NCBI GenBank assembly: GCA_017428545.1
Contig: JAFRQR010000003.1
Location: 17,311-49,310 of the forward strand
From: Clostridiales bacterium
GTDB lineage: Bacteria; Bacillota; Clostridia; Saccharofermentanales; Saccharofermentanaceae
DNA length: 32,000 bases
Direction of reading: 5' to 3'
Shown here: piece after piece, positions 1 through 16,429 of the stretch
Numbering within the stretch: position 1 is the first letter of the stretch
How the letters are laid out: the number at the start of each line of letters is the position of its first letter
The notes under the pieces: generated by a model
Seen by the model: the letters and a program-made list of their open reading frames with translations, nothing else
Databases searched by the model: none
What the model was told of the DNA's origin: nothing
Made by a program: the position numbers and the translations under genes

Positions 1-3000
1 TGTCAGAAAGAGTTCGGTCAAGCCGCCTACTTCGGAGACATTCACAGCGTCGGTCTCGCCTATACGACTATCACCGACGAAGACCTTGAAATCCAAGTCA
101 CCGCAAACCTCAAAGAGCCGAGCATAGACAAATTTATTGCCGGCGTTCTTGTGGAACGGCAGTTCTTTGAAAGCCTTCGTGAAATGTGCGACTTCCTTGA
201 AACTCTCGATTTCAACGAGCTTACCGATTACACCGACGAGCAGATAGAGATCGCCAAGAGTCAAGGAAAACAGGCTGAACCCGAAAAGACTGAAGCTCCG
301 CTCGCCCCTCCGCCTCAGAAGGTAAAACGAGACCTAACACCGCATATTCTTTATCCCGAGATCAAGTCTGATTATCGGACGAACTTCAAGATCGAGGATG
401 ACGACATCGGCGTCGGTACTCCGCTTGAACGGTTTCACCATAACATTATGGCGATCCAACTCCTTCACAAACTGGAGGGCGAACACCGACTCGCGGATAC
501 CAATGAACAGCGTATCCTTTCCGATTACGTCGGGTGGGGCGGTCTATCTGAGTTCTTTGAGGAAACCAATCCGCACTACAACGAACTTCGCGCAGTGCTG
601 AATGATGAGGAGCTTGCCTCTGCCCGCGAATCGACGCTGACGGCGTTCTATACGCCTCCGGTTGTCATTAAGAGCATCTATCAAGCGCTTGAGAATATGG
701 GGTTCAAGAACGGCAATATCCTTGAGCCCTCGTGCGGTATCGGCAATTTTATGGGTCTCGTCCCGGACGGAATGAGCGAATCGAGGATCTACGGGGTAGA
801 GCTCGACAGCGTTTCCGGCAGGATCGCACAACAGCTTTATCAGAGGAACAATATCGCCGTTCAGGGATTTGAAAGTACCGATCTTCCCGACAGTTTCTTC
901 GACGCTGCGGTCGGCAACGTGCCTTTCGGTCAGTTCAAAGTGCCGGATAAGAAATACGACAGATATAATTTCAATATTCACGACTATTTCTTCGCTCGAA
1001 CGCTCGATAAGGTCAGACCGGGCGGCGTTATCGCATTCATCACCTCTCGCTTTACAATGGACAAGGAAAACCCATCAGTGCGGAAATATATTGCGCAAAG
1101 AGCCGATTTGCTCGGAGCTATCCGCTTACCGAAAAACACCTTCAAGGATGCGGCGGGAACGGAAGTAACGGCAGATATTCTTTTCCTTCAAAAACGCGAC
1201 AGACTCGTAGATATCGAACCCGATTGGGTCCATCTCGGAACAGACGAAAACGGGATCACGATGAACCAATACTTCATCGACAACCCCGACATGATCGTCG
1301 GTGAGATGAAAACGGTCAGCGGACCGTTCGGCCCGGAACCCACCTGCGCCCCGTATGAGGATCAGACGCTTGCGGAGGGGTTGAGCGAAGCTGTTCAGAA
1401 TATCCACGCCGAATTCACCGAGGTCGAGCTTGACGACCTTATCGACGGAGAAGAGGACAACAGTATTCCCGCAGATCCGAGCGTTCGAAATTTTTCCTAT
1501 ACCGTCATTGACGGTAAGGTGTATTACCGCATCAACAGCCGGATGAATCCCATCGACGTTTCCGTTACAGCGGAAAACCGGATAAAAGGGATGATAAAGC
1601 TTCGCGACTGCACAAGACAGCTTATCGAGTATCAGATGGAAGACTGGCCGGATGATGTGATATCCGCCAAACAGAAGGAACTGAACGAAATATATGACGC
1701 GTTCAGCAAGAAATATGGGATCATCAACAGCCGCGCCAACTCTTCCGCTTTTAATCAGGACAGCGCGTACTACCTGCTGACCTCTCTTGAAAACCTCGAC
1801 GACGAGGGAAACTTCGTCGGGAAAGCGGATATGTTTACCAAAAGGACCATCCGTCAGAAGGTCATCGTAACGAGCGTGGACACCGCGTCGGAAGCTCTTG
1901 CACTTTCACTTGCCGAGAAAACGAAAGTGAATATGCCGTATATGTGTGAACTCACCGGCAAGACAGAAGAAGAGATTGCGGGAGAACTGCGCGGAGTTAT
2001 CTTCCTTAACCCGATGAACAGAGGGGACGACGATGAGGAACGTCCGAAATATCTTCCCGCAGACGAGTATTTGTCAGGCAATATCCGCGAAAAACTCGAG
2101 TGGGCAAAGCGCAGCGCGGAACTTTATCCGGATGATTACAACGTAAACGTTCAGGCGCTCGAAAAAGTGATGCCTAAGGATCTTTCCGCAAGCGAGATCT
2201 CCGTCCGCCTCGGGGCGACCTGGATTCCCAAGGAAGATATAGACTCGTTTATGTGGGAATTGTTCGATACGGCGTATTGGATGAGAAGAAACATCTCTTC
2301 CCGTTTCGTCCCGTATACCGGAGAGTGGAGCATTGAGGGAAAAACGTACGACAGGGGGAATATAAAGGTTCACAGTACCTATGGTACGGAAAGAAGGAAC
2401 GGTTATCAGATCCTCGAGGATACGCTCAACCTCCGGGACGTGAGAGTCTTCGATTACTTCGAAGACGAAAACGGAAGGAAAATCGCCGTGCTCAACAAGA
2501 AGGAAACGGCGATCGCTCAGGGAAAACAGCAGCTTATCAAAGAGGCTTTCTCGGAGTGGATCTGGAAAGATCCTGACAGGCGCGAAAGACTTACGAAACT
2601 ATACAATGAGAAGTTCAATTCGACACGTCCGCGTGAGTACGACGGCAGTCACCTGAACTTTGTCGGAATGAATCCGGAAATCACCTTGAGACCTCACCAA
2701 GTGAACGCTATCGCTCATATTCTCTACGGCGGGAATACCCTTCTTGCTCATGTGGTAGGCGCTGGGAAAACGTATGAGATGGTCGCCGCGGCGCAGGAGA
2801 GCAAACGGCTCGGACTTTGCCATAAAAGCCTGTTCGTCGTGCCGAATCACCTGACGGAACAGTGGGCGTCGGAGTATCTTCAACTCTATCCTTCCGCCAA
2901 CATCCTCGTAGCGACCAAGAAGGATTTTGAGACAAAAAACCGCAAGAAGTTCTGCGGGAGGATCGCGACGGGAGACTATGACGCGATCATCATCGGTCAC

Positions 3001-5157
3001 AGCCAGTTTGAGAGGATACCTATGTCGGTCGAAAGGCAGATCGCCATGCTCGAACAGCAGGAACGGGAGATCATACAGGGAATCGAGGAACTGAAATACA
3101 ACCGCGGAGAACGCTTTTCAATAAAGCAGATGGAGAAAGCGCGCAAGGCGGTGCGTCAGAAGCTTGAAAAGCTTAACGATCAATCCCGCAAGGACGACGT
3201 TGTGACATTCGAGGAACTCGGCGTCGACCGACTGTTTATCGACGAGGCGCACTTTTACAAAAACCTTGCCGCGTTCACAAAAATGAGGAACGTCGGAGGT
3301 ATTTCTCAGACCGAGGCGATCAAATCGAGCGATCTGTATATGAAGTGCCGGTATCTCGATGAACTGACAGGAGGACGAGGCGTCGTCTTTGCGACCGGAA
3401 CGCCTATCTCCAATTCAATGGTCGAGATGTACACGATGCAGAAGTATCTTCAGTACGCAACGCTAAAAAGAAACGACCTCATTCATTTCGATTCGTGGGC
3501 GTCGACATTCGGAGAAACGGTTACAGCGATAGAACTCGCTCCCGAGGGGAACGGATACCGCGCAAAGACGCGGTTCGCCAAATTCTACAATCTTCCTGAA
3601 CTGATGTCTATGTTCAAGGAAGTCGCGGATGTTCAGACTGCGGATATGCTCGATTTGCCCGTTCCAAAAGCAAACTATCACAACATCGTTCTGAAGCCAT
3701 CCGAGCATCAGAAGAAAATGGTCGAGTCTCTTTCCGAGCGCGCCGAAAAGGTCCGGAACAGAATGGTCAATTCAAGCGTTGACAATATGCTCTGCATTAC
3801 CAACGACGGGCGAAAGCTCGCTCTCGATCAGCGTCTTCTCAACGATATGCTCCCGGACAGCGAGACGGGCAAGGTGTCCGCGTGCGCCGACAACGTTTTT
3901 GATATCTGGCAAAGGACTGCAGATCAGCGTTCCACGCAGTTGGTGTTCTGCGACCTGTCCACTCCGAAAGGAGACGGTTCCTTCAACGTATACGACGATC
4001 TGAAAGCAAAGCTCATCGCCAAAGGTATTCCCAACGCGGAGATCGCTTTCGTTCACTCCGCAGAGACCGAAAGCAAGAAGAAGGAATTGTTCGGGAAAGT
4101 CAGGAGCGGACAGATCCGCGTACTTATCGGTTCCACGCAGAAGATGGGTGCGGGAACGAACGTGCAGAAGAAACTCATAGCTCTTCATCATCTCGATTGT
4201 CCGTGGCGTCCTGCCGATCTTCAGCAGCGCGAAGGCCGCATCATCCGGCAGGGCAACGATAACCCGGAGGTGGAGATCTACACATACGTTACCGAGAACA
4301 CATTCGACAGTTATCTGTATCAGCTTGTCGAGAGCAAGCAGAAATTCATCGGTCAGATCATGACAAGCAAATCGCCCGTTCGGTCGGCGGAAGACGTCGA
4401 CGAACAGGCGCTTTCTTATGCGGAGATCAAGGCTTTGTGTACGGGGAACCCGTATATAAAGGAGAAGATGGATCTCGATATTGACGTGGCGCGGTTGAAG
4501 CTCCTTAAAGCGAATCATTTGTCCCAGCATTACGCTCTTGAGGACAAGATCTTAAAGGATATACCGAAAAAGATCGCTTCACTTGAACAGAGGATTGCCG
4601 GGTTCAAAGTTGATATTTCCCACGCTGAAGCGTATACACATCCGAACGAAGACGGGTTTTCTCCGATGATTATTCAGGGTAAGATCTATACGGACAAGAA
4701 AGCGGCAGGTACGGAGATCCTCGCGGTTTGCAAGAAAATGACGAGTCCGAACCCCATACCGCTTGGCTCATATCGTGGGTTCGATATGGAACTGTCATTC
4801 GATCCGGTGGTAAGGGAGTATATGATTACTCTGAAAAACGAACTCCGTCACACGACTCCGCTCGGAACGGATATCTTCGGCAACATTCAGCGCCTTGACA
4901 ACCTCATATCCTCGTTTCCGGAGAAGCAGAAGGCTTGTGAGAATCAACTCGAGAACGAGAGAGTTCAGCTTGAGAACGCGAAAGAGGAACTCGACAAGCC
5001 ATTTGTTCACGAAGAGGAACTAAAGACGAAATCTGCGCGGCTTGCGGAACTGAACGCGATGCTTGACCTCAACAAGAACGACAACGAGATCGTTGACGGG
5101 GAGCGCGATGAAGAAGAAACACCTGAACCAAGCAGAGATGAAAGGGATTCCAGATGA
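1..5157 (+). CDS. Giant fused N6-adenine DNA methyltransferase + SNF2/DEAD-box helicase typical of conjugative elements (5'-partial; frame open from nt 1)
   Basis: Frame 1 has no stop between nt 1 and the GTG at 151, so the protein probably starts upstream of the window. It carries SAM-binding motif ILEPSCGIGNF (nt 718-750), catalytic-type motif GNVPFG (nt 913-930), helicase Walker A GAGKT (nt 2758-2772), DEAH box (nt 3241-3252, FIDEAHFYKN) and motif VI QQREGRIIRQGN. Total size exceeds 1668 aa. Confidence 0.9.
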   Translation, partial: CQKEFGQAAYFGDIHSVGLAYTTITDEDLEIQVTANLKEPSIDKFIAGVLVERQFFESLREMCDFLETLDFNELTDYTDEQIEIAKSQGKQAEPEKTEAPLAPPPQKVKRDLTPHILYPEIKSDYRTNFKIEDDDIGVGTPLERFHHNIMAIQLLHKLEGEHRLADTNEQRILSDYVGWGGLSEFFEETNPHYNELRAVLNDEELASARESTLTAFYTPPVVIKSIYQALENMGFKNGNILEPSCGIGNFMGLVPDGMSESRIYGVELDSVSGRIAQQLYQRNNIAVQGFESTDLPDSFFDAAVGNVPFGQFKVPDKKYDRYNFNIHDYFFARTLDKVRPGGVIAFITSRFTMDKENPSVRKYIAQRADLLGAIRLPKNTFKDAAGTEVTADILFLQKRDRLVDIEPDWVHLGTDENGITMNQYFIDNPDMIVGEMKTVSGPFGPEPTCAPYEDQTLAEGLSEAVQNIHAEFTEVELDDLIDGEEDNSIPADPSVRNFSYTVIDGKVYYRINSRMNPIDVSVTAENRIKGMIKLRDCTRQLIEYQMEDWPDDVISAKQKELNEIYDAFSKKYGIINSRANSSAFNQDSAYYLLTSLENLDDEGNFVGKADMFTKRTIRQKVIVTSVDTASEALALSLAEKTKVNMPYMCELTGKTEEEIAGELRGVIFLNPMNRGDDDEERPKYLPADEYLSGNIREKLEWAKRSAELYPDDYNVNVQALEKVMPKDLSASEISVRLGATWIPKEDIDSFMWELFDTAYWMRRNISSRFVPYTGEWSIEGKTYDRGNIKVHSTYGTERRNGYQILEDTLNLRDVRVFDYFEDENGRKIAVLNKKETAIAQGKQQLIKEAFSEWIWKDPDRRERLTKLYNEKFNSTRPREYDGSHLNFVGMNPEITLRPHQVNAIAHILYGGNTLLAHVVGAGKTYEMVAAAQESKRLGLCHKSLFVVPNHLTEQWASEYLQLYPSANILVATKKDFETKNRKKFCGRIATGDYDAIIIGHSQFERIPMSVERQIAMLEQQEREIIQGIEELKYNRGERFSIKQMEKARKAVRQKLEKLNDQSRKDDVVTFEELGVDRLFIDEAHFYKNLAAFTKMRNVGGISQTEAIKSSDLYMKCRYLDELTGGRGVVFATGTPISNSMVEMYTMQKYLQYATLKRNDLIHFDSWASTFGETVTAIELAPEGNGYRAKTRFAKFYNLPELMSMFKEVADVQTADMLDLPVPKANYHNIVLKPSEHQKKMVESLSERAEKVRNRMVNSSVDNMLCITNDGRKLALDQRLLNDMLPDSETGKVSACADNVFDIWQRTADQRSTQLVFCDLSTPKGDGSFNVYDDLKAKLIAKGIPNAEIAFVHSAETESKKKELFGKVRSGQIRVLIGSTQKMGAGTNVQKKLIALHHLDCPWRPADLQQREGRIIRQGNDNPEVEIYTYVTENTFDSYLYQLVESKQKFIGQIMTSKSPVRSAEDVDEQALSYAEIKALCTGNPYIKEKMDLDIDVARLKLLKANHLSQHYALEDKILKDIPKKIASLEQRIAGFKVDISHAEAYTHPNEDGFSPMIIQGKIYTDKKAAGTEILAVCKKMTSPNPIPLGSYRGFDMELSFDPVVREYMITLKNELRHTTPLGTDIFGNIQRLDNLISSFPEKQKACENQLENERVQLENAKEELDKPFVHEEELKTKSARLAELNAMLDLNKNDNEIVDGERDEEETPEPSRDERDSR

Positions 5158-5394: not shown

Positions 5395-5402
5395 GGTATA
5401 AT
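5374..5402 (+). promoter_or_regulatory. Sigma-A/sigma-70 type promoter for the ATPase gene
   Basis: TTGACT (5374-5379), 17-nt spacer, TATAAT (5397-5402). The -10 box overlaps the ORF-track ATG at 5401, which argues that translation starts at the downstream ATG at 5434. Confidence 0.6.
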
Positions 5403-5433
5403 GACGATACTTCAAGAGAACGGAGCGGGTTAT

Positions 5434-6795
5434 ATGTACAGAAATACACTTGAAAATTTGAAGAAGTGGAAAGACAATCCGCGGCGCAAACCGATGATGG
5501 TCTGGGGCGCGAGACAGGTCGGGAAAACTTATCTTGTCAGAGATATCTTTGCCGAAACATTTTATAAAGACAGATATCTTTATATCGATTTTCGAGTTGA
5601 GGACGATATCCGCGATTACTGCGAAAAGCACGTTTCGGCGAAGGAAATAGTCGAGTTTATCGCAGCGGTCAAAAACAAAAAGGTCAACAGGGACACCCTG
5701 CTGATCTTTGACGAAATACAGGAATGTCCCGGCATAATCACCGCACTGAAATACTTCTGTCAGGATATGCGCGAGGTACCAGTAATCGCGACCGGGTCGA
5801 TGGTCAGGATCAAGCTTCAGAGGCTGAGCAGAAAGCGCGGTGCAAAGACAAACAATCCGTTTCTCTTCCCTGTAGGTAAGATCAATCAGATCACCGTCTA
5901 CCCGATGACTTTTGACGAGTATCTCATAAATGCGAACAGGACGCTGTATGATGAAATCTGTTCCGCGTACCGAAAAAAACAGCCGCTCTCCGACGCTTTT
6001 CACAAACTCGCTCTTGATACGGTTTATAAATATTTGCTTATCGGTGGAATGCCCGACGCCGTTCAAACGTTTTTCGACACGGGGAGCTATCTGGAATCCA
6101 GAGAGGTGCTGACCGATTTGTACGACAACTATCTCTCGGATATGGAACTGTATCAGGCAAGCCCGGAATCTATCATACGGTCCAGAAAGATCTTCAAAGG
6201 GATCTATGCGGAACTAAACAAGGAATCCCGGAATTTCAGGCCGGGCATGATTGAAGAAGGAAGCAAAACAAGGGATATGAAAACCCCTATCGACTGGCTG
6301 ACGATGGCTCATATCGTTCATCAGTCGTTCCGGCTGGACGAGCACATATCCACTCCTTTTACAGAGAAAAACGACTCGGACTTCAGGCTTTTCCTGTGTG
6401 ACGTCGGAATGTTTACGTACCAGAGCGGAATCAACTCCGCTTCGTTTATCTCCGGCAATGAGAACAACACTTTATCCGGCATATTCTTTGAAAACTTTAT
6501 CGCGAATGAATTGATCGCCGCGGGCATAGATCTTTATTATTGGTGCGGAAAACATTCATCCGAGCTTGAATTTATCGTTGAGTCGGATAATAAGATTTAC
6601 CCGATTGACGTTAAGAAAAGCAGAGGATCTTTGAATTCGCTCGCAAACTTTGCCAACCACAACAGGTTTGAATTAGCGATTAAAGTATCTTCAAATAATT
6701 TCGGATATAACCCGGAAAGAAAATTATTGACAGTCCCGTTTTATATGTTCTTTCTTGTTGCAAATGAACTTGCAAAAGGCACATTGAAAGTCTGA
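5434..6795 (+). CDS. AAA+ ATPase of the AAA_14/DUF4143 type
   Basis: Walker A WGARQVGKTYL and Walker B LLIFDEIQ, with overall length and layout typical of DUF4143 ATPases. Start moved to 5434 (MYRNTL...), preceded by GGAGCGGG and lying downstream of the promoter. Confidence 0.85.
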   Translation: MYRNTLENLKKWKDNPRRKPMMVWGARQVGKTYLVRDIFAETFYKDRYLYIDFRVEDDIRDYCEKHVSAKEIVEFIAAVKNKKVNRDTLLIFDEIQECPGIITALKYFCQDMREVPVIATGSMVRIKLQRLSRKRGAKTNNPFLFPVGKINQITVYPMTFDEYLINANRTLYDEICSAYRKKQPLSDAFHKLALDTVYKYLLIGGMPDAVQTFFDTGSYLESREVLTDLYDNYLSDMELYQASPESIIRSRKIFKGIYAELNKESRNFRPGMIEEGSKTRDMKTPIDWLTMAHIVHQSFRLDEHISTPFTEKNDSDFRLFLCDVGMFTYQSGINSASFISGNENNTLSGIFFENFIANELIAAGIDLYYWCGKHSSELEFIVESDNKIYPIDVKKSRGSLNSLANFANHNRFELAIKVSSNNFGYNPERKLLTVPFYMFFLVANELAKGTLKV

Positions 6796-6847: not shown

Positions 6848-7984
6848 ATGGTAGATCAAAACAAAGCACTTGATGTTGAAATAAAAAAATTGCAAAGCTT
6901 AAAACGAGAAGGAGATTATTGGGACTTCAAAAGAGAATGGCACAATGATAAAGGTGATTTGCTGCATGACATTATCTGTATGGCTAACAATCTTTCCGGA
7001 CATAACGGATATATCATAATTGGCATAGATGATGAAAATGATTGTAAGGTTATTGATGTTTCAAATGATCCAAATCGCAAAAACACTCAAAATATCATCG
7101 ATTTTTTATCGACAAAGCCGTTTGCGGGAGATATCCGCCCATTTGCATATGTTGAGACAATTCGATTAGATGAAAAAAGCGTTGATGTATTAGTTGTAGT
7201 TTCCGATAGTCGCGTTCCATATTATTTAACAGAGCGCTGTGAAAAAGTCAATCCAAATAACATATACATCCGAGTTGGTGATACTAATACTCCTATTAAC
7301 AAGTCGGCTGATGTCGGAAGGATTGAAAAATTATGGCAAAGGAGATTTGGATTGGATTTGTCTCCGATCGATCGGGTGTTTATATATTTATCAAATCCTT
7401 TCGATTGGGTTGGATTGCACTCCGGGGACGGCTATTACTATAATAAGTTCCCTGAGTTTCGTATTCAGTTTGAAGATGATCCTACTCGGACATCATATGA
7501 ATATTATATGTTTCCTTATGTAAATACTGAATCAAGATGGTTTATAACTCGTATTTATTATCACCAAACTCCTTTAAATGAAATTCTTTGCAATTCGTTA
7601 GGTGGCGAACGATTGTTAGTTTCAGCTCCGGATTGGCTTTATTTAGATCTAACCAGCAGAAGTGGTTTTTTGTATCACAGTTATACTAAGAACTCATTAA
7701 AGTGGATGTTAAATAAACTATTTAACACTAATCAAGATCAAGCAGACCTTGATTTGGATTCACTTTACTCCATTGTTCCGGTTTTTGAAAACGAATATGA
7801 ACGTTCAGATTTTGAAAAATATGTTGCGGGGAAATATGACGCTCAAGAATTAGAAAAATACTCCAATCGCATCGATTCTATTCGCAACATTGACAACGAT
7901 GATTACAAGGAACGACTTGAGAAGGATTTCGAAAATGCACTGTATCTTATTGATATGCTAAATGAATACCGAAGAGCAAAATAG
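6848..7984 (+). CDS. AlbA_2 / Schlafen-like (divergent AAA) domain protein with uncharacterised C-terminal half
   Basis: The N-terminus EGDYWDFKREWHNDKGDLLHDIICMANNLSGHNGYIIIGIDDENDCKVIDV matches the AlbA_2 pattern (E.lEfK ... icAfaN..GG.iiiGv.d). The gene is markedly AT-rich relative to its neighbours. AAAGGA RBS lies before the ATG. Confidence 0.75.
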   Translation: MVDQNKALDVEIKKLQSLKREGDYWDFKREWHNDKGDLLHDIICMANNLSGHNGYIIIGIDDENDCKVIDVSNDPNRKNTQNIIDFLSTKPFAGDIRPFAYVETIRLDEKSVDVLVVVSDSRVPYYLTERCEKVNPNNIYIRVGDTNTPINKSADVGRIEKLWQRRFGLDLSPIDRVFIYLSNPFDWVGLHSGDGYYYNKFPEFRIQFEDDPTRTSYEYYMFPYVNTESRWFITRIYYHQTPLNEILCNSLGGERLLVSAPDWLYLDLTSRSGFLYHSYTKNSLKWMLNKLFNTNQDQADLDLDSLYSIVPVFENEYERSDFEKYVAGKYDAQELEKYSNRIDSIRNIDNDDYKERLEKDFENALYLIDMLNEYRRAK

Positions 7985-8110: not shown

Positions 8111-8139
8111 TTGCCGTCTTTCGATGCGTGGCTTATACT
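8111..8139 (+). promoter_or_regulatory. Possible promoter of the metallophosphoesterase gene
   Basis: TTGCCG (8111-8116), 17-nt spacer, TATACT (8134-8139), located 23 nt upstream of the AGGAGG-preceded ATG at 8162. Confidence 0.35.
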
Positions 8140-8161
8140 TTGCCCCAAGGAGGTGAACATA

Positions 8162-8704
8162 ATGGTTTTCTTTATTTCCGATACACATTTCGGACACGCG
8201 AACGTATTGAGACTTTGTGATCGCCCTTTTGAAACAATAGAGCAGATGAACGAAGCAATTATCGGGAACTGGAATCGTCGAGTTACCGGCAGCGATTCAG
8301 TATACATAATCGGAGATATGTTCTTCCGTTGCTCAGATCCTGAATCAATACTTAAAAGACTTCACGGCAAGAAGCACCTTATAATCGGTAATCATGACAG
8401 TTCGTGGATGAATAAGGTTGATCTAAATAAGTATTTTAAGAGTGTTGAGCTTATGGCAATCATATCAGACGGAGCGCACGCTATGACGCTCTGCCATTAT
8501 CCGCTGTTATCGTGGAAGCACGCCAAAACGTCATATATGATACACGGTCATATTCACGCAAATACCGATATGGATTTTTGGCCTCTTATTTTGGCTCGGG
8601 AGAACGTGCTAAACGCAGGAGTGGATTTGAATGGTTTTCAACCGGTTCCCTTTGCCGAGCTTTTTGAGAACAACATAAGATTCAAGGATGAACATGCTAC
8701 ATGA
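8162..8704 (+). CDS. Metallophosphoesterase (calcineurin-like phosphoesterase superfamily)
   Basis: All four MPP motifs are present: FFISDTHFGH, IIGDMF, IIGNHD, IHGHIH. Start set at 8162 (MVFFISD), preceded by the AAGGAGG RBS. The ORF-track start at 8111 overlaps the putative promoter. Confidence 0.85.
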   Translation: MVFFISDTHFGHANVLRLCDRPFETIEQMNEAIIGNWNRRVTGSDSVYIIGDMFFRCSDPESILKRLHGKKHLIIGNHDSSWMNKVDLNKYFKSVELMAIISDGAHAMTLCHYPLLSWKHAKTSYMIHGHIHANTDMDFWPLILARENVLNAGVDLNGFQPVPFAELFENNIRFKDEHAT

Positions 8705-8854: not shown

Positions 8855-10143
8855 TTATGCGGTTATGGATTTAATGGATTTGGGTGGAAAGATAGCAAGC
8901 TCCTCGGGCGGTGCGTTTACGATCTCCTGTCGCAGTTCCTCGATCTGCTTCAGCTTTTCCGCCTTGGATTTCGCCGCCTCTGCCGCAAGCCGTTCGGCGT
9001 TCTTTTTCTTGCGTCGGGCAAGCTCGTAATCTCTCCGCTTTCGGTATTGGTCTTTCCAATACTGCTTTTTCTTCATCTCCTCGATTTCTTCGGGCGTGGG
9101 TTCGGGCAAAGGAACCTCAATACGACCGATGAAGTTGAGGTAGATATCCACCTCTTGAATACGCTCGCCGGTGGACTTGTTGGGAGCATGGACGAGGATC
9201 TTTTCCACGAACTCGTTGATCATTTGATTGGTCAGTCCCGTAAATCCGTGTACTTCCGGATAAGCTCCATAAAGCCGTTGATGTTCGTTGTGTCCTGATC
9301 GTATACAGATATCTCCGTCTCGGCTTCGACTATGACGGTCTTTATCTCTTTCTGCTCGTTCTCGTATTCTTTGGATAACGCCTCAAAACGTTCCTCCGTA
9401 ATCTTGCCGAGAGCGTAGGTTTCATACAACTTCTTGTAGAGGATATCCAGTTCGTCGAAACGCCGTTTATCTCGATTCAACTTCCGCTTTTTCTCTTTGG
9501 CGGCGGCGTCCTGTTTCAATACAGACGCCTTGCGTACACGTTCTACGAAATCTTCTTTGTTTGTAATGGCGTATTTGCTGACCGTTCGGATCGTAAACAG
9601 GATCAGTTCCCGCAGAGCTTTCGTACTGATGTGATGCGAACAGCAAACCGGCTTTGTCCCTCGTATGGATAATTTATAGGTCGAACAGTCATAATCATTG
9701 TTCGGATTTAATCGCTCATTCTTCTGTTCTTCTGCAGTTCTACAAAGACGAACGTATTCTGCTTTCGTCAGTTCCTTTTCTTCGTTGCAAAAAGTTTTGC
9801 GCTGAACCTTGAATTGTTTGACGCACAGATCGAGCCACCCCGCAAATCTGAAAAAGGCGTTGATTGACGCGATCATCGAATTAGCGCTCGCCACGGCATA
9901 TTCCTTTTCAAGTTCCGCCTTATACGCCAATACCAAACCTTTATCAATCAGTTTTCCTGACGAAAATGCGATAAATCGCCGCACATCCCGCAGATACTTT
10001 TCCACAGTTAATTCGCTTTTTTCGTCATTACGAAGCTCATACTCAAATTCCGCAATCATTTGATTTGTAATTTTACTCTGTTCCATTTTCTTGACCTCCG
10101 TTTGAAACATTGTACTAAAATCTTGTGAAACTTTATATTCCAC
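8855..10143 (-). pseudogene. Chimeric, frameshifted recombinase remnant: tyrosine-recombinase N-terminal SAM-like domain fused to large-serine-recombinase C-terminus (zinc-ribbon, coiled coil, DUF4368-like tail)
   Basis: Residues ~21-145 (MEQSKITNQMIAEFEYELRN...SINAFFRFAGW...ELTKAEYVRL) look like a phage-integrase N-terminal domain, but no catalytic domain follows. From about nt 9708 the same frame continues as YDCSTYKLSIRGTKPVCCSHHISTKALRELILFTI...ITEERFEALSKEYENEQKEI...FMELIRKYTDLRD*, which is typical of TnpX/TndX-like serine recombinases. A 1-nt frameshift near 9226-9234 separates it from LTNQ/MINEFVEKILVHAPNKSTGERIQEVDIYLNFIG (9223-8855). No resolvase catalytic domain is present. Confidence 0.75.
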
Positions 10144-10209
10144 AATAGTTTAATACAGGACATTTCACTCCGGTTTCAAGAAAAGATGCTTCGATATGGA
10201 CTTTTTTGT

Positions 10210-10248
10210 AAAAAGCAGCCGACCTATGAAAAATATCATAAATCGGCT
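10210..10248 (-). terminator. Probable intrinsic terminator of the three-gene minus-strand operon
   Basis: On the minus strand there is an imperfect hairpin AGCCGA-tt-TATGA / TCATA-gg-TCGGCT (10248-10217), followed by GC then TTTTT (10214-10210). It starts 53 nt after the stop at 10301. Confidence 0.4.
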
Positions 10249-10300
10249 TTCTACTATATCTCAAGTATCATATTTGCTTTAAGCTGTGTATAATCAACAT

Positions 10301-11926
10301 TTATAGTATTCTTGTAGGACGTGCTACACTATCATCCTCATTAATCAATTTACCCAATATGTATTTCTCAAAAAGACCAAGCGAAAGAAATGTTACAACT
10401 TTGTCTTCATCTTGAAAGTCCAATTCTATCGGCTTAGATGAAAGAAATATAAGATGAGTTATGACATCGCCGTCAGCATTAATGAATTTCTTGATTTTGT
10501 CCGGCTCAGAAAGAACAAGATCATATCTTTGCCTACAATGATTGTAGTACTCACCCTTTCCAAACAGTTTATCGTAATCCGTAATCATTGCACTTGAGTT
10601 TAAAGAATCAGAAAAGTACTTTGCCTCTATTAAGAATAGCTCCTTGCTATCCTCAGAATAAAAAACTATATCATAATCTCCATAGTTAATATCTCGTTCC
10701 CCGAATATTCTTTGAAACTTTACATCTTTTTCATCTACGGTTGCCTGATAGTGTTTGTTTAATATTAGGCGAATCCTATCGACCAAAATGTCAGACAATT
10801 CTTGATTTCGCTTGCCCATAGCTTCTGAAAGAACATCGGCCTGATTGGAATAACACATGCCTCCGTTGCTGAAATATGAAATCCACAATTGTTTTGATTG
10901 CTCCAAAGCTGCATATGAAATCAATACATTCCCGTTTTCAAGACCAACAAACGGTCTTAATTCATATCGTTCCTTATTAGCCCCCGTTATCCATATAATG
11001 TCTTCATTATCGCGTAATTGCTTTTTAACTTTTTCTTTTGTTAGTACGAAACTATTGTAAAATGATTTTCCGTCGATTCTAGGTCTTGTATAATTTTCAA
11101 CTAGATTAATAAACTTTTCACGACCAATAATTGTAAGAGCTTTATCGTCTCCGTGTAACAAGTCTTCTTGAAAACTTTTCAGTGCAGCTAAAAACAAAAG
11201 GAATTCTACACCATGCGATTTTGAAAACGCTTTTCCAAAATCGCTTTCATTTGCATCTGAGGTAAGCGAATCGCAAACAAGAGAATCCTGATTACCAGTA
11301 ATAATTGTATTATAAAATATGACGGGATGATATTTTAACACTTCAAATGGCACATTCTTTTGAGGCGTGATTTTGAGTCCGTAGAATAATGATTGGCCGG
11401 GTCCTTTTGATAATGTTAACAAAGATATCGCCTGAGACAGCGCGCCGCATATATATAAATCTATTATTAATTCGTAATCCATTGAAAACCCACGGCTTTT
11501 TGCAGAAGCCATCGTATCTGCATCGTGTTGATACAAAATACAGTTTTCAATCCAAACATTACAAGAATCAATAATACTTCTCATTATGTTTCTATTTTCG
11601 ATAAACACATTTAATGCAGTTTCGCTTTGAATATTCAATCTTGCCAGTTTTGTTCTTGCTTTCTTTTCGGCAAGATATATGGCATGGACTTCATCAAAAA
11701 TATAATGCAGTTTCATGAACATATCATAGGTATTTTCCTCTTTAAGATTCTTTAATAGTTTTTCTTGGATAATTGAAATCTTGTCGAGCATCATTTGGAT
11801 TGCTTCTTTTCGGTCATTGATTACTTTCTCACCATCTCCAAATAAGCTTTTAAACCTATTGTGAACCATGGAGGTTGGAACCCCCATCATAAGCCAAAAA
11901 GGCCTGGTTTGAAAAAGCATACACAT
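10301..11926 (-). CDS. Uncharacterised 541-aa protein with C-terminal PD-(D/E)xK-like nuclease motif (operon gene 3)
   Basis: AGGAGA RBS lies 8 nt before the ATG at 11926. The C-terminal segment GDYDIVFYSEDSKELFLIEAKYF gives D (10670-10672) ... E-A-K (10627-10619), the restriction-endonuclease-fold signature. The N-terminal ~400 aa has no motif I recognise. Very AT-rich. Confidence 0.8.
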   Translation of the reverse strand: MCMLFQTRPFWLMMGVPTSMVHNRFKSLFGDGEKVINDRKEAIQMMLDKISIIQEKLLKNLKEENTYDMFMKLHYIFDEVHAIYLAEKKARTKLARLNIQSETALNVFIENRNIMRSIIDSCNVWIENCILYQHDADTMASAKSRGFSMDYELIIDLYICGALSQAISLLTLSKGPGQSLFYGLKITPQKNVPFEVLKYHPVIFYNTIITGNQDSLVCDSLTSDANESDFGKAFSKSHGVEFLLFLAALKSFQEDLLHGDDKALTIIGREKFINLVENYTRPRIDGKSFYNSFVLTKEKVKKQLRDNEDIIWITGANKERYELRPFVGLENGNVLISYAALEQSKQLWISYFSNGGMCYSNQADVLSEAMGKRNQELSDILVDRIRLILNKHYQATVDEKDVKFQRIFGERDINYGDYDIVFYSEDSKELFLIEAKYFSDSLNSSAMITDYDKLFGKGEYYNHCRQRYDLVLSEPDKIKKFINADGDVITHLIFLSSKPIELDFQDEDKVVTFLSLGLFEKYILGKLINEDDSVARPTRIL

Positions 11927-11953
11927 ATGTATTCTCTCCTAAAAAATAGTTTT

Positions 11954-13228
11954 TTAAATAATGGTCAGTATTTTATCGATCAGCGAACCCAGTTTATTAT
12001 CCTCAAGATAAATTTTAAAACGAACCAATCTGTCAATTTCTTCACACATCAGTTCAGTTTTCTTTTTATTCAAATATACCTTAAGTCTTCGCTTGCATTT
12101 TACAGGAAGCACAGTGCAAATATATTCAAGTTGTTGCGCGTTATAATCATTTACTTTTCTTTCTTCAAATTGTTCTAACAGAATATCAGTCACGGCCATA
12201 AACAAATCAAATTTTGAAATCCTGGTGTTTTTTTCGCTTATGGCAGAATTTTCCGAGATTATTTGAGTAATAGTTGCAAGGTCGAAAACACTTTTAATCT
12301 TTTCTGATTCTCTAATTTGCAATGCAAAATCTGACTGGAGATTTCCAATTAGTTTTTGCGCAAAAATAGTCGGATACCTTTTGTGAACCAATAAATAATT
12401 TACCAACAAAGATGCTTGGGTCTTATTATCGCACTTATCCAAATGGCTGATAAAAGCATCAACTGACGTACACAGTTTATTTCTAACTTCTTTTTCGCAA
12501 TCATTAGAACACATTCCGCTTTCTATCTGATGCAATTCATCAACATTCCTTGATACTTTTGTTGAAATCATAAAAAGTCCGATATTCTTTAATAAATCAT
12601 TATCGCTTTTTAAAAGAGATATTATTAGCGTGTCAGATGGATCAGTTAAAAAAAGCGGATTTATCATATTTAAGAGCAATATGCGACTTTCATCATTATA
12701 CGCAAGTTTTTCAAATTTCCCCTGATCTATTTTTTGCAGTATTCTTGCTGCCATTATTATAACTAAATAATTTCTATATGAATCATAGAAAAAGAAACGA
12801 TTAAGATATTCATACTTATTCCGGAACCGTTCGTCTCCCCACTTAATCTTAAAGGTAAAGTTATCAGACTTTCCACATAATAATCTTGTTAACCCGCCAT
12901 AAAGGCAATTAGTCAAATTGTATTTTTCAATAGATGACTTTATTTCGTCATCGCAGTCCAGATTTCGGCATAATAAAGACAAGACAATAATTAGAACTGA
13001 CTTGCCTTTTGATTGACCATGAACCAAATCAATATATTGCTTAAGTTCACAGAAAACTGTATTTATGGATTTTCTATGTAAAATCCCATTTATTCTTTTT
13101 TTGACCTTGTTGAACATTGATGGCTCGTTTATATAATCATTTACAGCTATACCTAGATCAAGTATCGTTTTCTGATTTATCATTTTTATATATTCTTGTG
13201 TGCAATAATATTTCCGTCTTCCATCCAA
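11954..13228 (-). CDS. Uncharacterised ~409-424-aa, apparently all-helical protein (operon gene 2)
   Basis: Long ORF in the same orientation and composition as its neighbours. The start is either TTG at 13228 (43-nt overlap with gene 1) or ATG at 13183 (2 nt after the gene 1 stop). No Walker or other catalytic signature was recognised, only a loose R-x5-H string (SRNVDELHQ). Confidence 0.75.
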   Translation of the reverse strand: MDGRRKYYCTQEYIKMINQKTILDLGIAVNDYINEPSMFNKVKKRINGILHRKSINTVFCELKQYIDLVHGQSKGKSVLIIVLSLLCRNLDCDDEIKSSIEKYNLTNCLYGGLTRLLCGKSDNFTFKIKWGDERFRNKYEYLNRFFFYDSYRNYLVIIMAARILQKIDQGKFEKLAYNDESRILLLNMINPLFLTDPSDTLIISLLKSDNDLLKNIGLFMISTKVSRNVDELHQIESGMCSNDCEKEVRNKLCTSVDAFISHLDKCDNKTQASLLVNYLLVHKRYPTIFAQKLIGNLQSDFALQIRESEKIKSVFDLATITQIISENSAISEKNTRISKFDLFMAVTDILLEQFEERKVNDYNAQQLEYICTVLPVKCKRRLKVYLNKKKTELMCEEIDRLVRFKIYLEDNKLGSLIDKILTII

Positions 13229-14559
13229 GATTTGAGATCTTTTAATATTTTTTTAGAAGATGCAGGGCTAAGTTTAGATATACAATAAAAATTTCTATCT
13301 AGAGAATTGAATGATGTTCCAATTGATACCCCACTATAGCCATTTTTGTTATTCTGTAATAAAAATCTATCATGTATGGGGAATTTTGATTGATATAGTC
13401 CAATACCTAATCTCTTTTTTATACGAATAATATTGCCCATTACAGCATCTTCCTTTATTTTTTTAAAAAAGGAATCAGCGTTCAAACTATTGTTGGATCC
13501 ATTACAAAAGAAAACTATACTCTTAAATTTGGCGTTACAATTTGCAATAATCCTCAACCAATCCAAAGAGCAACCTATACCGTCATTATCAGAAAAATAA
13601 GAATCAAATAACCATATTTCGTTGGTAGCAGATTCTATTTCTTTCCACAACAAATTGTTGACTACCGATAACTGATTTGGTTTAATAAAATGAACTTGGT
13701 CATCCGGTTGATCTGTTTTGATTTGCCTTCTTATTTCAAATTCGGACTTTCTAATAACGGTGTTATAATCCGAACGTTTTCCAATGTGTGTAATACGTTC
13801 ATTACTTGTTTTTGCAGGAATATACTCTGATGCAATTTTATTAAGTTTTATAGGCTTCAAGTTTTGTTTTATGCCAATTTGAAAATCTAAACTTGTAATA
13901 TAACTTACATCTCTATTGCAGAATACCAAATTGCCGTCTTGAAAAACCTCAATATCATGGCTGTTCCATGTTTTATCACACTCTATTTCTATATCTCTTG
14001 TTTCAGTTTCATTGTTTAAAAGTTGACTAGATACAATTATCCCATTTTCTTTGAATTGAACTACTATTGAAGACTTGGCAGGAACCTTTTCAATTATTAC
14101 GCTCCCTTTCTCGTTAGTCTTCAAACCGAATTCATGAGGTTCAAAAACGAAAGCATCTCCCAATGCCATTGGATTTAAAAGGATATCTATTCCTGTATAT
14201 TCTTTAATAAACTCACTGATTTTGCAAAAATCATCCGATGATATGCTTAAACGATATTCATCATTGTTTATCTCAAATATGCATAACGGCTTTTCAAAAA
14301 AACAGTAACGTGTCATTTTGGCACAAGTGGAATCATTATAAGGATTCATGGTTGACCGCGGTTGCAACAAGCCGGTTTCTATTTGAATCCAACCATCTGA
14401 AACAATTGCATGATCGCAATAGCTTTCTGTAAACACAAGATTAAATCTGCCGACTTTGATTGTTCTTTTTAGTATTCGACCGGTTGCTTTTTTTCTAAAA
14501 CCTTGGTGAAAAATAGTTAATAGAGGTTGCCCTTTAAACAAGATCTTATCGCAAATCAT
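13186..14559 (-). CDS. Uncharacterised 457-aa protein with C-terminal HDR-type PLD-like (MIT_C-like) module (operon gene 1)
   Basis: GGGAG RBS lies just upstream of the ATG at 14559. The C-terminal ~145 aa reads IWLFDSYFSD...SIVFFCNG...PIHDRFLLQNNKNGYSGVSIGTSFNSLD (His codon 13372-13374). This resembles the DxY...IHDR...G..IG.G(L/F)D layout I recall for the PLD-fold C-terminal domain of MITD1. The N-terminal ~300 aa appears beta-rich and I cannot assign it. Confidence 0.8.
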   Translation of the reverse strand: MICDKILFKGQPLLTIFHQGFRKKATGRILKRTIKVGRFNLVFTESYCDHAIVSDGWIQIETGLLQPRSTMNPYNDSTCAKMTRYCFFEKPLCIFEINNDEYRLSISSDDFCKISEFIKEYTGIDILLNPMALGDAFVFEPHEFGLKTNEKGSVIIEKVPAKSSIVVQFKENGIIVSSQLLNNETETRDIEIECDKTWNSHDIEVFQDGNLVFCNRDVSYITSLDFQIGIKQNLKPIKLNKIASEYIPAKTSNERITHIGKRSDYNTVIRKSEFEIRRQIKTDQPDDQVHFIKPNQLSVVNNLLWKEIESATNEIWLFDSYFSDNDGIGCSLDWLRIIANCNAKFKSIVFFCNGSNNSLNADSFFKKIKEDAVMGNIIRIKKRLGIGLYQSKFPIHDRFLLQNNKNGYSGVSIGTSFNSLDRNFYCISKLSPASSKKILKDLKSWMEDGNIIAHKNI

Positions 14560-14600
14560 TTTACTCCCACAATAGTCTTTTACATTTTTTATTTGAGTTT

Positions 14601-14629
14601 ATTATACAAAAGAATAATGAATAATTCAA
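14601..14629 (-). promoter_or_regulatory. Near-consensus promoter of the three-gene operon
   Basis: On the minus strand: TTGAAT (14629-14624), 17-nt spacer, TATAAT (14606-14601). It lies about 40 nt upstream of the ATG at 14559. Confidence 0.55.
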
Positions 14630-14646
14630 GATTTTACTTATTCTAT

Positions 14647-14964
14647 CTAGTATACTTTTGTAATAATAAATATTTCGTCCGGTGAATACAGATCCTCGCA
14701 AGTGTGGAAGCCGAACAGACTCAATTCGGGTGATTTGTTATGCCGCGCGGTGTCGTATGTTATATCCAAGTTCCACCAAGTACCGTCAAAGTAGACACGA
14801 TTCCAAGAGTGCTGCATTTGCGTGTCCGTTTTCTTCATGCCGTCTAAACAATAGCAGGGTACGCCCTGGCTCCGGCAGATTGCCGCGAACAAGTTAGCGA
14901 AATCATAACAGATCCCGCTTTTCAATGAAAGCGTCCGTTTTACGTTGAAGCACTGAAAAACAGG
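14647..14964 (-). pseudogene. Transglutaminase-like cysteine protease core fragment (N-terminally truncated)
   Basis: LKSGICYDFANLFAAICRSQGVPCYCLDG...HSWNRVYFDGTWWNLDITYD matches the transglutaminase-core Cys/His/Asp pattern (GvC.dfA...R..GIP.R.v.G...HaW..vy..g.W...D.T). The frame is open only back to a TGA at 14965-14967 with no ATG (TTG at 14925). Only ~92-105 aa remain of a domain that is normally embedded in a larger protein. Confidence 0.7.
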
Positions 14965-15041: not shown

Positions 15042-15515
15042 ATGCGAAAGCGAGGTGAGCAACAATTGAGGACAGATATTAACCGTGTCGACAGTATTTC
15101 AAAAGAGATGAAACTCAACGACAAGTTATACGAGCAAATGAAAGAAGAACTCGACGACCTGATCCTCGACTACTATTTCAGTGATTACGAATACGGCGAG
15201 AACGAAGAGGTCATATACGGATTTGAGACCCTGTATTTCTTCAGACGTATTCTCTCAGTTATGAGCAATCGTGACCTTCCTTTCAAAGCTGCGCTCGGGC
15301 TGTATTTCTTCCGTGACCGGCTGAAGATCATCAACAACTTTCGTGAATACTACCTACCTGACGAGGACTCGGATTCTGAGATGCTTGAATTCATTCTTGA
15401 ACTCAGCTACCGCTTTTACGACCTCATATATATCCCCGGTATGACCGAAGACGAAATGCTTGATCTGGTTGAAGAATGCAGAGAGTACCGAAAGGAGGCG
15501 TCAAAGTGTGGGTAA
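15042..15515 (+). CDS. Hypothetical acidic protein (first gene of the transfer-module operon)
   Basis: 157-aa ORF co-oriented with and overlapping the next gene. It is Asp/Glu/Tyr-rich and I recognise no family. The start is uncertain (alternative ATG at 15109). Confidence 0.55.
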   Translation: MRKRGEQQLRTDINRVDSISKEMKLNDKLYEQMKEELDDLILDYYFSDYEYGENEEVIYGFETLYFFRRILSVMSNRDLPFKAALGLYFFRDRLKIINNFREYYLPDEDSDSEMLEFILELSYRFYDLIYIPGMTEDEMLDLVEECREYRKEASKCG

Positions 15516-16429
15516 CTCCTGAGCAAATAGAAAACGCGAGACGGATGGATCTGCTCACATATCTTCAAACTTACGAGCCGGATAACTTGCAACGACTCGG
15601 AACGGAAACTTACTGTACGAAAGAACACGATTCACTGAAAATATCGAACGGAATGTGGCATTGGTTCTCGCGCCATATCGGCGGCAAAAACGCTCTTGAC
15701 TACCTTATCAAAGTCAAGGGCTTTTCTTTTTTGCTGGCGGTGATGACGATCAATAACGCGGCTGAAGGAAAGCAAGTAAACCGTGAGGAAAGGGAGAAGC
15801 TGAAAGATCTCGAAGTACCGAAACTCAACCCGAACATCCGAAGAGTAAAACGCTACCTTATGAGCCGCGGGATTGACGAGCGTCTTATCGACTATTGCCA
15901 CAAAGAAGGGATGCTTTTTGAGGACGAGGATCACCACAACTGCGTCTTCATAGGAAAGGATGAACAAGGCGTCCCGAAGTTTGGCTCGCTGAGAAGTACA
16001 ACGACAGATTTCAAACGGGATCTCGACGGAAGCGATAAAAAGTATGCCTTTAATCTTTGCCTTAAAAAAGGATCAGACACGCTGCACGTATTCGAGGCTG
16101 TCATCGACCTGATGAGCCATATCACTCTTTCTGTCAAATCAAATAAAGAGTGGTACAAGGACGGATATCTTTCGCTCGGCGGCGTTTATGCGACGGATAA
16201 CAAGAAGGATATTCCGCTCGCGCTGAACTCTTTTCTTGAGAGTCATCCGGATATAAGAGCGATCCGTCTTCATCTTGACAACGATGAGATCGGGAGAAAG
16301 GCGACCGAGCAGATCACGGAAGCGTTAAAAGACAAATATGAAGTTATCGACGAGCCGCCGAAAAGCGGCAAGGACTACAACGAGTATTTGCAAAATGAAA
16401 TACGAAGAAGAAAGGAGCCGACACGATGA
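15506..16429 (+). CDS. DUF3991 + Toprim domain protein (primase-like, conjugative element)
   Basis: VWVTPEQIENARRMDLLTYLQTYEPDNL...KISNGMWHWFSRHIGGKNALDYLIKVKG is the typical DUF3991 N-terminus. The C-terminal Toprim carries the LHLDNDEIGRKA (DxD) motif. GTG start at 15506 is preceded by AGGAGG. Confidence 0.85.
   Translation: MWVTPEQIENARRMDLLTYLQTYEPDNLQRLGTETYCTKEHDSLKISNGMWHWFSRHIGGKNALDYLIKVKGFSFLLAVMTINNAAEGKQVNREEREKLKDLEVPKLNPNIRRVKRYLMSRGIDERLIDYCHKEGMLFEDEDHHNCVFIGKDEQGVPKFGSLRSTTTDFKRDLDGSDKKYAFNLCLKKGSDTLHVFEAVIDLMSHITLSVKSNKEWYKDGYLSLGGVYATDNKKDIPLALNSFLESHPDIRAIRLHLDNDEIGRKATEQITEALKDKYEVIDEPPKSGKDYNEYLQNEIRRRKEPTR

Follow-up and report, generated by a model that had tools for sequence, protein, structure and literature searches.

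Three minus-strand genes of a clostridial conjugative element as two probable anti-phage-type modules side by side

The closest described relatives of the genes considered here are two single-protein anti-phage systems. One is Juno, the name given to the VPA1262 proteins, which are widespread in Gram-negative genera and whose mechanism is unknown (bioRxiv 10.64898/2026.08.01.741415, August 2026). The other is Upx, a defence protein of ~1270 amino acids (aa) with an N-terminal domain (NTD) spanning residues 1-515, a middle domain (MD, 516-714) and a C-terminal domain (CTD, 715-1272), and with a PD-(D/E)xK core at 1121-1272 that includes D1161, E1176 and K1178 (PMC13099982); it senses phage terminase via an N-terminal sensor region, and E1176 is essential (PMC13601566). 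The genes compared with them form an AT-rich block on the minus strand (positions 10210-14629) of a stretch of 32,000 nucleotides (nt) from a Clostridiales bacterium (contig JAFRQR010000003.1, positions 17,311 to 49,310), hereafter the window, which belongs to an integrative and conjugative element (ICE). A preliminary description of the block, made from the sequence alone, had presented its three genes as one self-contained unit of unassignable proteins. Comparison of neighbourhoods indicates instead that they are probably two separate anti-phage-type modules lying side by side: genes 1 and 2 are an obligate two-gene unit (Module A) and gene 3 is a stand-alone gene (Module B). The trio is not one unit: outside the window, gene 1 was found with gene 2 at every locus sampled and with gene 3 at none, and homologues of gene 3 stand alone.

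Neighbourhoods of the three genes

Gene-1 loci were sampled at 30 genome loci from a search with the gene-1 profile, on individual contigs and on a Bacillus cereus megaplasmid. The sample covers Clostridia, Paenibacillus, Viridibacillus, Caryophanon and Selenomonadaceae, so that Bacilli and Negativicutes are also spanned, as well as metagenome-assembled genomes (MAGs) labelled Gastranaerophilales; flanks of up to 10 kb were inspected where available. At 37 of 37 gene-1 loci outside the window, a gene-2 homologue lies directly downstream on the same strand, the homologues being 31-52% identical to window gene 1 and 28-53% identical to window gene 2. The junction between the two genes is tight (median 3 nt, range -38 to +17 nt; 37 distinct loci), and the genes co-diverge: their pairwise identities correlate with r=0.96, a value reached by 0/2000 Mantel permutations. 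A natural fusion, P0204 (826 aa), joins gene-1-like residues 1-461 to gene-2-like residues 574-824 (hhalign 98.2%, E=4.6e-14). The halves of P0204 are connected by a linker of ~110 aa, and its source organism is very AT-rich.

Gene 3, by contrast, is found beside none of these 37 pairs, the closest relative of the window pair included (52% identity; L047), where the order is gene 1, gene 2 and then a tyrosine integrase. Likewise, neither gene 1 nor gene 2 occurs at any of 8 inspected gene-3 loci. Homologues of gene 3 with 61-68% identity are solo genes, and the family is abundant (368 clusters, some on >100 contigs), yet all three genes are adjacent on the window's own contig only. The preliminary description had named a lack of conserved co-occurrence as the observation that would speak against its single unit: co-occurrence is lacking for the trio and holds for genes 1 and 2.

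In the window, the three genes do share a strand and a similar G+C content (31-35%), no terminator interrupts the 27-nt spacer between genes 2 and 3, and one promoter-like site and one terminator bracket the trio, all of which would suit a three-component conflict system of two nuclease effectors and a helical adaptor. Such a system is nevertheless very improbable, given that gene 3 is missing from every other pair locus and that its homologues lie alone on hundreds of contigs. The order of genes in the window argues against it as well. Gene 3 is positioned between the gene 1+2 pair and a recombinase remnant, residues 20-155 of which are 42% identical to the tyrosine integrase located directly after the pair in L047. 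The resemblance suggests that the pair once moved with its own integrase and, since gene 3 sits between the pair and this probable former integrase, that gene 3 joined the pair secondarily. The proposal of two juxtaposed modules is thus preferred.

Other genes beside the pair were considered as further components. In L001 and L002 the pair is accompanied by a third gene (552 and 394 aa, respectively); both were rejected as divergent forms of gene 3, to which they are not related. DUF6037 was rejected as a third component because it is present at only 2/38 pair loci. Of these two loci, one is in a Clostridia MAG (L001, 5516-6094) and one on a 590-kb plasmid of B. cereus (L129, 7679-8350); in each, DUF6037 is encoded just upstream of the pair, and the two products share 31% identity. 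DUF6037 is missing at the remaining 36 pair loci. An agr-type quorum-sensing cassette (LytTR response regulator, HATPase_c_5 kinase and AgrB) lies a few kb from the pair in L040 (3788-6570) and L047 (6544-9273), two loci with pairs that are only remotely related to each other.

Defence islands or mobile elements are a recurrent setting of both modules. Specifically, the pair adjoins an Avs4-like gene and Hachiman at one locus, Vsr/C5-methylase/AIPR at another, and a methylase with ResIII at a third, and gene 1 was not found in the phage records or viral contigs searched. Tight translational coupling, strict co-inheritance and the natural fusion, together with the frequent location of the pair on ICEs, integrative elements and a megaplasmid, would also be expected of a toxin-antitoxin (TA) or addiction module that stabilises mobile elements, with gene 1 as a toxic phospholipase D (PLD)-type enzyme and gene 2 as its antidote. 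This explanation appears unlikely: classical TA pairs do not usually consist of proteins of such size (457 and 409 aa) with several domains, the homologous Juno protects against phages as a single polypeptide, and several of the pair loci represent classic defence islands. A TA-like function and abortive infection do not exclude each other.

Gene 1, its partner and the Juno family

Gene 1 matches the NCBIfam model of the VPA1262 N-terminal domain, NF040700, over residues 91-326 (E=1.6e-15, 56.8 bits). Two models describe the family: NF040699 represents full-length VPA1262 (about 1026 positions, cutoff 325 bits), and NF040700 covers the first ~478 positions (cutoff 80 bits), so gene 1 corresponds to the N-terminal half of VPA1262. 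Neither gene 1 nor gene 2 matches full-length NF040699 at E<=1, and searches of Pfam, PADLOC, PHROGs and the PDB with the single gene-1 sequence gave no useful match. An exhaustive search with the gene-1 profile returned 241 relatives, which fall into tiers: the ~460-aa gene-1 family itself, proteins of ~440-490 aa that pass NF040700, and proteins of ~500-545 aa that pass it strongly (119-207 bits). The remaining tier is P0316, a near-full-length Juno-type protein of 1225 aa that scores 293 bits on the full VPA1262 model. Relatives more distant than gene 1's own family pass NF040700 at 84-207 bits. When gene 1 is aligned via the intermediate tiers to P0316 and to full-length Juno-type proteins from Anabaena and from Shewanella plasmids, the D[SP]YF and HDR motifs are found in all of them. 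Judged from these alignments and profiles, gene 1 is distantly homologous to the N-terminal half of VPA1262/Juno and lies just outside the curated boundary of the superfamily that holds the Juno N-domain. Residues 388-519 of P0316, its PLD-like region, show a weak match to the PADLOC candidate PDC-S05 (E=6.6e-7) that gene 1 does not share; PDC-S05 may be another small HDR-PLD family.

The AlphaFold2 (AF2) model of gene 1 has a mean predicted local distance difference test (pLDDT) score of 82.4 and consists of a beta-rich N-terminal region (aa 1-222), a disordered linker (aa 223-263) and an alpha/beta C-terminal domain (aa 264-457). This last domain is matched in Foldseek, always with probability 1.00, by the NgoAVII R-protein, BfiI, FAM83, Zucchini, MITD1, NucT and the PLD-type domains of polyphosphate kinase. 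The predicted structure thus confirms a PLD fold for the C-terminal domain, as the preliminary description had proposed. Within it, the histidine encoded at 13372-13374, which that description had singled out for mutation, is H396, invariant in the gene-1 family and the first residue of a conserved motif that marks the putative active-site lobe (Table 1).

At the sequence level, the nearest PDB relative of this domain is of another kind. The gene-1 family profile matches the C-terminal domain of MITD1 (E=0.0016) with the IHDR motif aligned, and Pfam MIT_C (PF16565) is matched by 16/30 members of the family as against 5/30 for PLDc_2; window gene 1 itself reaches no Pfam threshold. The PLD-like domain of MITD1 is not known to have catalytic activity. 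MITD1 is a eukaryotic ESCRT-III cofactor, and this domain is reported to bind membranes (PMC11962514). The gene-1 domain could accordingly be a MITD1-type lipid- or membrane-binding, or lipid-hydrolysing, domain, with Module A acting at the cell membrane, and the presence of Arg where catalytic motifs have Lys would fit such a role. A membrane function is improbable all the same, because fold search ranks single-lobe PLD nucleases (NgoAVII, BfiI, Zucchini and NucT) highest, the invariant G-T-S-x-N-S resembles the GSxN of catalytic HKD motifs, and no transmembrane or lipid-related partner was seen. A phosphodiesterase remains the preferred reading of gene 1.

Gene 2 gives no signal in Pfam, PDB, NCBIfam, PADLOC or PHROGs, and a profile of 26 sequences finds nothing in Pfam or the PDB. 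By its distribution, it is an orphan obligate partner of gene 1. Three candidate identities were rejected. As a homologue of the C-terminal half of Juno, it fails to match the C-halves of P0316 or of the Anabaena and Shewanella proteins, whether by the gene-2 profile, a 34-sequence hidden Markov model (HMM) or hhalign; as a hidden PLD lobe, it belongs to a family without a conserved His; and it bears no resemblance to the partners of other N-domain proteins.

These other partners were surveyed at 80 metagenomic loci with stand-alone VPA1262-N-domain proteins (L049-L128), 65 of which could be analysed. An open reading frame (ORF) on the same strand lies immediately downstream of the N-domain gene in 63/65. 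The partner families are mutually unrelated, with products of ~200 aa (32 loci), ~450 aa (11), ~460 aa (3) and singletons, and none resembles gene 2 or the Juno C-half. The ~200-aa partner is a small HDR-type PLD lobe (consensus D.y...HDRf.iiD...G; PLDc_2 E=0.001). Together with an N-domain protein of ~490-600 aa it makes up a two-gene, two-lobe architecture (e.g., L057 6520-7128 and L113 6183-6854), of which no description was found in the literature searched. One member of the ~450-aa partner family (L086, 4434-6647) has at its C-terminus a domain of glycosyltransferase family 2 (E=2e-32), which is unexpected beside a PLD-type defence-like protein.

PLD active sites are built from two HKD-type lobes, and BfiI, Nuc and Zucchini dimerise. 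Gene 1 contributes one lobe and would therefore need to dimerise to complete such a site. The common occurrence of a second PLD lobe beside related N-domain proteins points the same way: gene 1, single-lobed and with a non-PLD partner, is suggested to homodimerise.

Gene 3, Upx and a tentative functional reading

Over residues 401-500, gene 3 weakly matches positions 1114-1220 of the NCBIfam Upx model NF042954 (14.2 bits, E=0.0045), whose cutoff of 1900 bits is not reached; 17/19 members of the gene-3 family also match this model weakly. Conservation within the family is high (81% mean column identity), with D417, D419, E434 and K436 invariant; the glutamate and lysine codons at 10627-10619 that the preliminary description had picked out are those of E434 and K436. 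In the AF2 model of gene 3, the C-terminal domain is confident (pLDDT 68.4 overall), and the PD-(D/E)xK-like fold proposed for it is borne out by fold search. In Foldseek, the model has a significant PDB match to Upx alone (9wuf, over ~546 columns, with E=4.4e-9 and probability 1.00), and the match ranked after it has E=0.87. Searches of the PDB with the gene-3 sequence, profile and C-terminal fragment gave nothing useful and no sequence-level match to the 9wuf chain, the model found nothing significant among the viral structures of BFVD, and gene 3 has no PADLOC or PHROGs match. The label "unassignable" thus no longer fits gene 1, given its match to the VPA1262 N-domain, or gene 3, which matches Upx by profile and structure.

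The two proteins differ in size, ~1270 aa for Upx against 541 aa for gene 3 (528-543 aa for the listed homologues). At this length gene 3 has no room for all of NTD, MD and CTD or for the entire N-terminal terminase sensor, and by its size and the position of its nuclease core it most likely corresponds to the Upx CTD.

In related ICEs, a gene-3 homologue usually lies directly upstream of the DUF3991-Toprim gene, oriented like the transfer genes and often preceded by DUF6664. This fixed slot and the high conservation of the family raise the question of whether gene 3 serves the conjugative element, by processing transferred DNA, excluding rival elements or countering defences in the recipient. 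A role of this kind is rather unlikely. One homologue comes after Hachiman and the gene of an AbiJ-like PDC-S32 protein, in a neighbourhood that shows no ICE genes; the window copy is inverted relative to the ICE backbone and placed among defence candidates; the only structural relative is Upx, a validated anti-phage protein; and the cargo varies in the slot that separates the polyvalent protein from the primase-like gene. A defence function is therefore favoured for gene 3.

A small gene usually precedes the gene-3 homologues (Table 1), either DUF6664 or an ORF resembling residues 18-88 of DUF3991-Toprim; none is present upstream of window gene 3. In its usual ICE setting, the gene-3 module could include this small gene as a second component. 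In IMG/VR, three contigs listed as viral (L130-L132) encode gene-3 relatives with 51-60% identity. L130 also has the Toprim-N-terminus-like ORF upstream, and L130-L132 may therefore be misclassified ICE fragments rather than phages.

A broader reading is put forward tentatively, as possible rather than probable: genes 1 and 2 may be an undescribed two-gene anti-phage system of Gram-positive bacteria, the Juno N-domain may serve as a common effector chassis with at least four unrelated partners (the fused C-half of Juno, the ~200-aa second HDR-PLD lobe, the ~450-aa partner and gene 2), and gene 3 may be a "half-size Upx" without the terminase-sensing N-terminal region. In the preferred two-module account, the beta-rich N-region and single PLD lobe of gene 1, with its HxR...GTSxNS motif, would form a dimer like those of BfiI, Nuc and Zucchini, and this dimer would be a phosphodiesterase, most likely a nuclease. 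Gene 2, which takes the position of Juno's long C-terminal region, would be a sensor or regulator that holds gene 1 inactive until infection. Gene 3 would act as a single-gene nuclease with an Upx-like body and a D...ExK site. It is without roughly half of Upx, presumably the terminase-sensing N-terminal region, and would thus be triggered or targeted differently from Upx. We infer an anti-phage activity of both modules from the observed homologies, folds, motifs, linkage, fusion, co-divergence and island contexts.

Several observations weigh against the two-module account. Gene 1 scores 56.8 bits on NF040700, below the curated cutoff of 80 bits, and is at best about 13-25% identical to Juno, its only characterised relative and a Gram-negative single-chain protein from which no mechanism can be transferred to gene 1. 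The picture of a "split Juno" is positional rather than based on homology. The motif of gene 1 (HxR...GTSxNS) departs from the canonical HxK(x)4D(x)6GSxN in having Arg in place of Lys and a longer spacing, and with the membrane-binding MITD1 as the closest PDB sequence relative of its PLD domain, nuclease activity is not assured. For gene 3, the TM-scores of the Upx match are low (0.22/0.11), and the pLDDT of the model is only 68.4, so the extent of the similarity to Upx is uncertain; the fixed ICE slot beside the primase-like gene at most of its loci is also compatible with a role in ICE biology.

The locus bears on Juno and Upx in several ways. In Bacillota, the N-half of Juno has a family that is in every case encoded apart from an orphan partner with which it is strictly co-inherited, and the conserved core of the Juno superfamily is identified as a single-lobe PLD-type domain with an HDR motif. 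The locus offers a hypothesis for Juno itself, a dimeric phosphodiesterase effector with a variable sensor or regulator, and names residues for mutation. If the broader reading is true, single-chain Juno is one tested member of a large modular superfamily. Gene 3 represents an abundant unannotated family on ICEs of human-gut Clostridia and is useful for asking which part of Upx suffices for nuclease action and how this part is triggered. Neither module is recognised by PADLOC-DB v2.0 (2023) or Pfam, and both are therefore invisible to current defence annotation of gut microbiomes.

Cargo slot, expression signals and comparison with known systems

The relaxase and the coupling protein assign the window to an ICE: both are homologous to their counterparts in related elements, with 33% and 70% identity, respectively, to those of L003. 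The slot occupied by the AT-rich block of 4.4 kb is flanked by a giant methylase/SNF2-helicase polyvalent protein (151-5157) on one side and by DUF3991-Toprim (15476-16429) on the other, and it is a variable cargo site. G+C is 31.7% in gene 1, 31.1% in gene 2 and 34.5% in gene 3 against 47-51% in the ICE backbone, and both modules have a G+C below that of their flanks at every locus of occurrence. The contrast on which the preliminary description had relied is real, with a backbone of about 50% rather than 53%, and the proposal that the block is horizontally acquired ICE cargo is supported by the relaxase and coupling protein homologues, the variable slot and the low G+C. The slot is a defence island, as two PADLOC candidates, PDC-S01 and PDC-S50, have strong matches in it (Table 1), in agreement with the defence-like neighbours noted earlier. 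The G+C of the PDC-S50 gene is low (33-37%), similar to that of the block under study.

Table 1. Coordinates of the genes, signals, motifs and neighbours of the three-gene block; positions refer to the window, except in the last row, where they refer to the loci named.
Feature	Position	Strand	Remarks
Gene 1	13186-14559	-	457-aa ORF
Gene 2	11954-13183	-	From ATG, 409 aa; alternative TTG start gives 11954-13228
Gene 3	10301-11926	-	541-aa ORF
Promoter-like TTGAAT-17-TATAAT, upstream of gene 1	14629-14601	-	10/12 consensus positions match
GGGAG ribosome binding site (RBS) of gene 1	14568-14564	-	4 nt before gene-1 ATG
AGGAGA RBS of gene 3	11940-11935	-	Within the 27-nt spacer between genes 2 and 3
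Intrinsic-terminator-like hairpin + T-tract, after gene 3	10248-10217	-	13-pair stem
Gene-1 C-terminal PLD-superfamily (MIT_C-type) domain	13189-13770	-	aa 264-457; fold search
Gene-1 invariant motif H396-D-R-F ... G410 ... G414-T-S-x-N-S419, putative active-site lobe	13303-13374	-	Alignment columns
Gene-3 catalytic-type motif D417/D419 ... E434-A-K436	10619-10678	-	Invariant in family alignment
AAA_14+DUF4143 ATPase, PADLOC candidate PDC-S01	5401-6795	+	E=3e-122
Schlafen AlbA_2 protein, PADLOC candidate PDC-S50	6848-7984	+	E=6e-117
Separate DUF4368 fragment, after recombinase remnant	8855-9223	-	
Chimeric recombinase remnant	9232-10143	-	303 aa; sequence resemblance
Transglutaminase-core gene fragment	14647-14925	-	92 aa; immediately upstream of gene-1 promoter region
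Small genes before gene-3 homologues	L003 7555-7884; L043 5796-6125; L130 5682-5894; L046 6691-6894		

The three ORFs, their junctions, both RBSs and the hairpin with its T-tract were all present where the preliminary description had placed them. The start of gene 2 had been left between a TTG at 13228 and an ATG at 13183; alignments of homologues begin at the ATG, which is therefore the real start, and the stop codon of gene 1 (TAA, 13188-13186) is spaced 2 nt from it. The hairpin is the sole minus-strand terminator-like site within 10100-14750. The promoter-like hexamers exist and are well placed, yet similar pairs are not enriched in the AT-rich block (25 observed against 23.1 expected from shuffled sequence), so this promoter is statistically no different from chance and is plausible by position only. 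Genes 1-3 are probably read from one promoter to one terminator, with the two modules head to tail.

On the downstream side of the block, residues 146-303 of the recombinase remnant resemble the C-terminus of a serine recombinase, and the remnant and the separate DUF4368 fragment look like the scar of nested insertions. On the upstream side, the transglutaminase-core fragment, for which no homologue was found at the other loci examined, is probably the edge of the inserted minus-strand block. Two further plus-strand ORFs lie nearby: a calcineurin-like metallophosphoesterase of 197 aa (8111-8704), with sub-threshold Pfam matches only and no PADLOC match, and an acidic ORF of 157 aa (15042-15515) just upstream of DUF3991-Toprim, with no family or PADLOC match.

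Among known systems, Juno is the one closest to Module A. Gene 1 shares with it N-domain homology, the D[SP]YF and HDR(F) motifs and a PLD-like domain at the end of the N-domain, and both are cargo of mobile or defence islands. They differ in architecture: Juno is one Gram-negative polypeptide of about 1000-1200 aa, whereas the Bacillota family consists of a separate 457-aa protein and an obligate 409-aa partner. The single-chain architecture of Juno was not found here, as two genes are present at all 38 loci including the window, and even the P0204 fusion has a C-half that is gene-2-like and not Juno-like.

Single-lobe PLD nucleases (BfiI, NgoAVII R-protein, Nuc/NucT and Zucchini) resemble gene 1 in fold and in carrying one HKD-like motif per chain, but show no detectable sequence similarity to it; in BfiI and NgoAVII, the PLD domain is N-terminal and a DNA-binding domain C-terminal, the reverse of the order in gene 1. 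No PDB sequence is closer to the gene-1 family profile than that of MITD1, which has the IHDR motif in common with it and whose MIT domain is without a counterpart here.

Upx and gene 3 are both solo genes and have in common a C-terminal PD-(D/E)xK core in which the aspartate and the glutamate of the ExK are spaced by 15 residues (D1161 to E1176 in Upx, D419 to E434 in gene 3). Unlike Upx, gene 3 is found mainly on ICEs of gut Clostridia.

Matched against these systems, the earlier suggestion of an undescribed defence system holds in part. No PADLOC match was found at E<=1 for any of the three proteins (PADLOC-DB v2.0, 2023) and no Pfam match for these proteins, and NCBIfam matched gene 1 (VPA1262 N-domain) and, weakly, gene 3 (Upx). 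The reading as defence cargo is supported, with each module outside family thresholds, and the trio as a system is not. It is fair to regard each module as an undescribed variant of the Juno or Upx kind, one that misses the curated thresholds and differs in architecture, rather than the three genes together as a new three-gene system.

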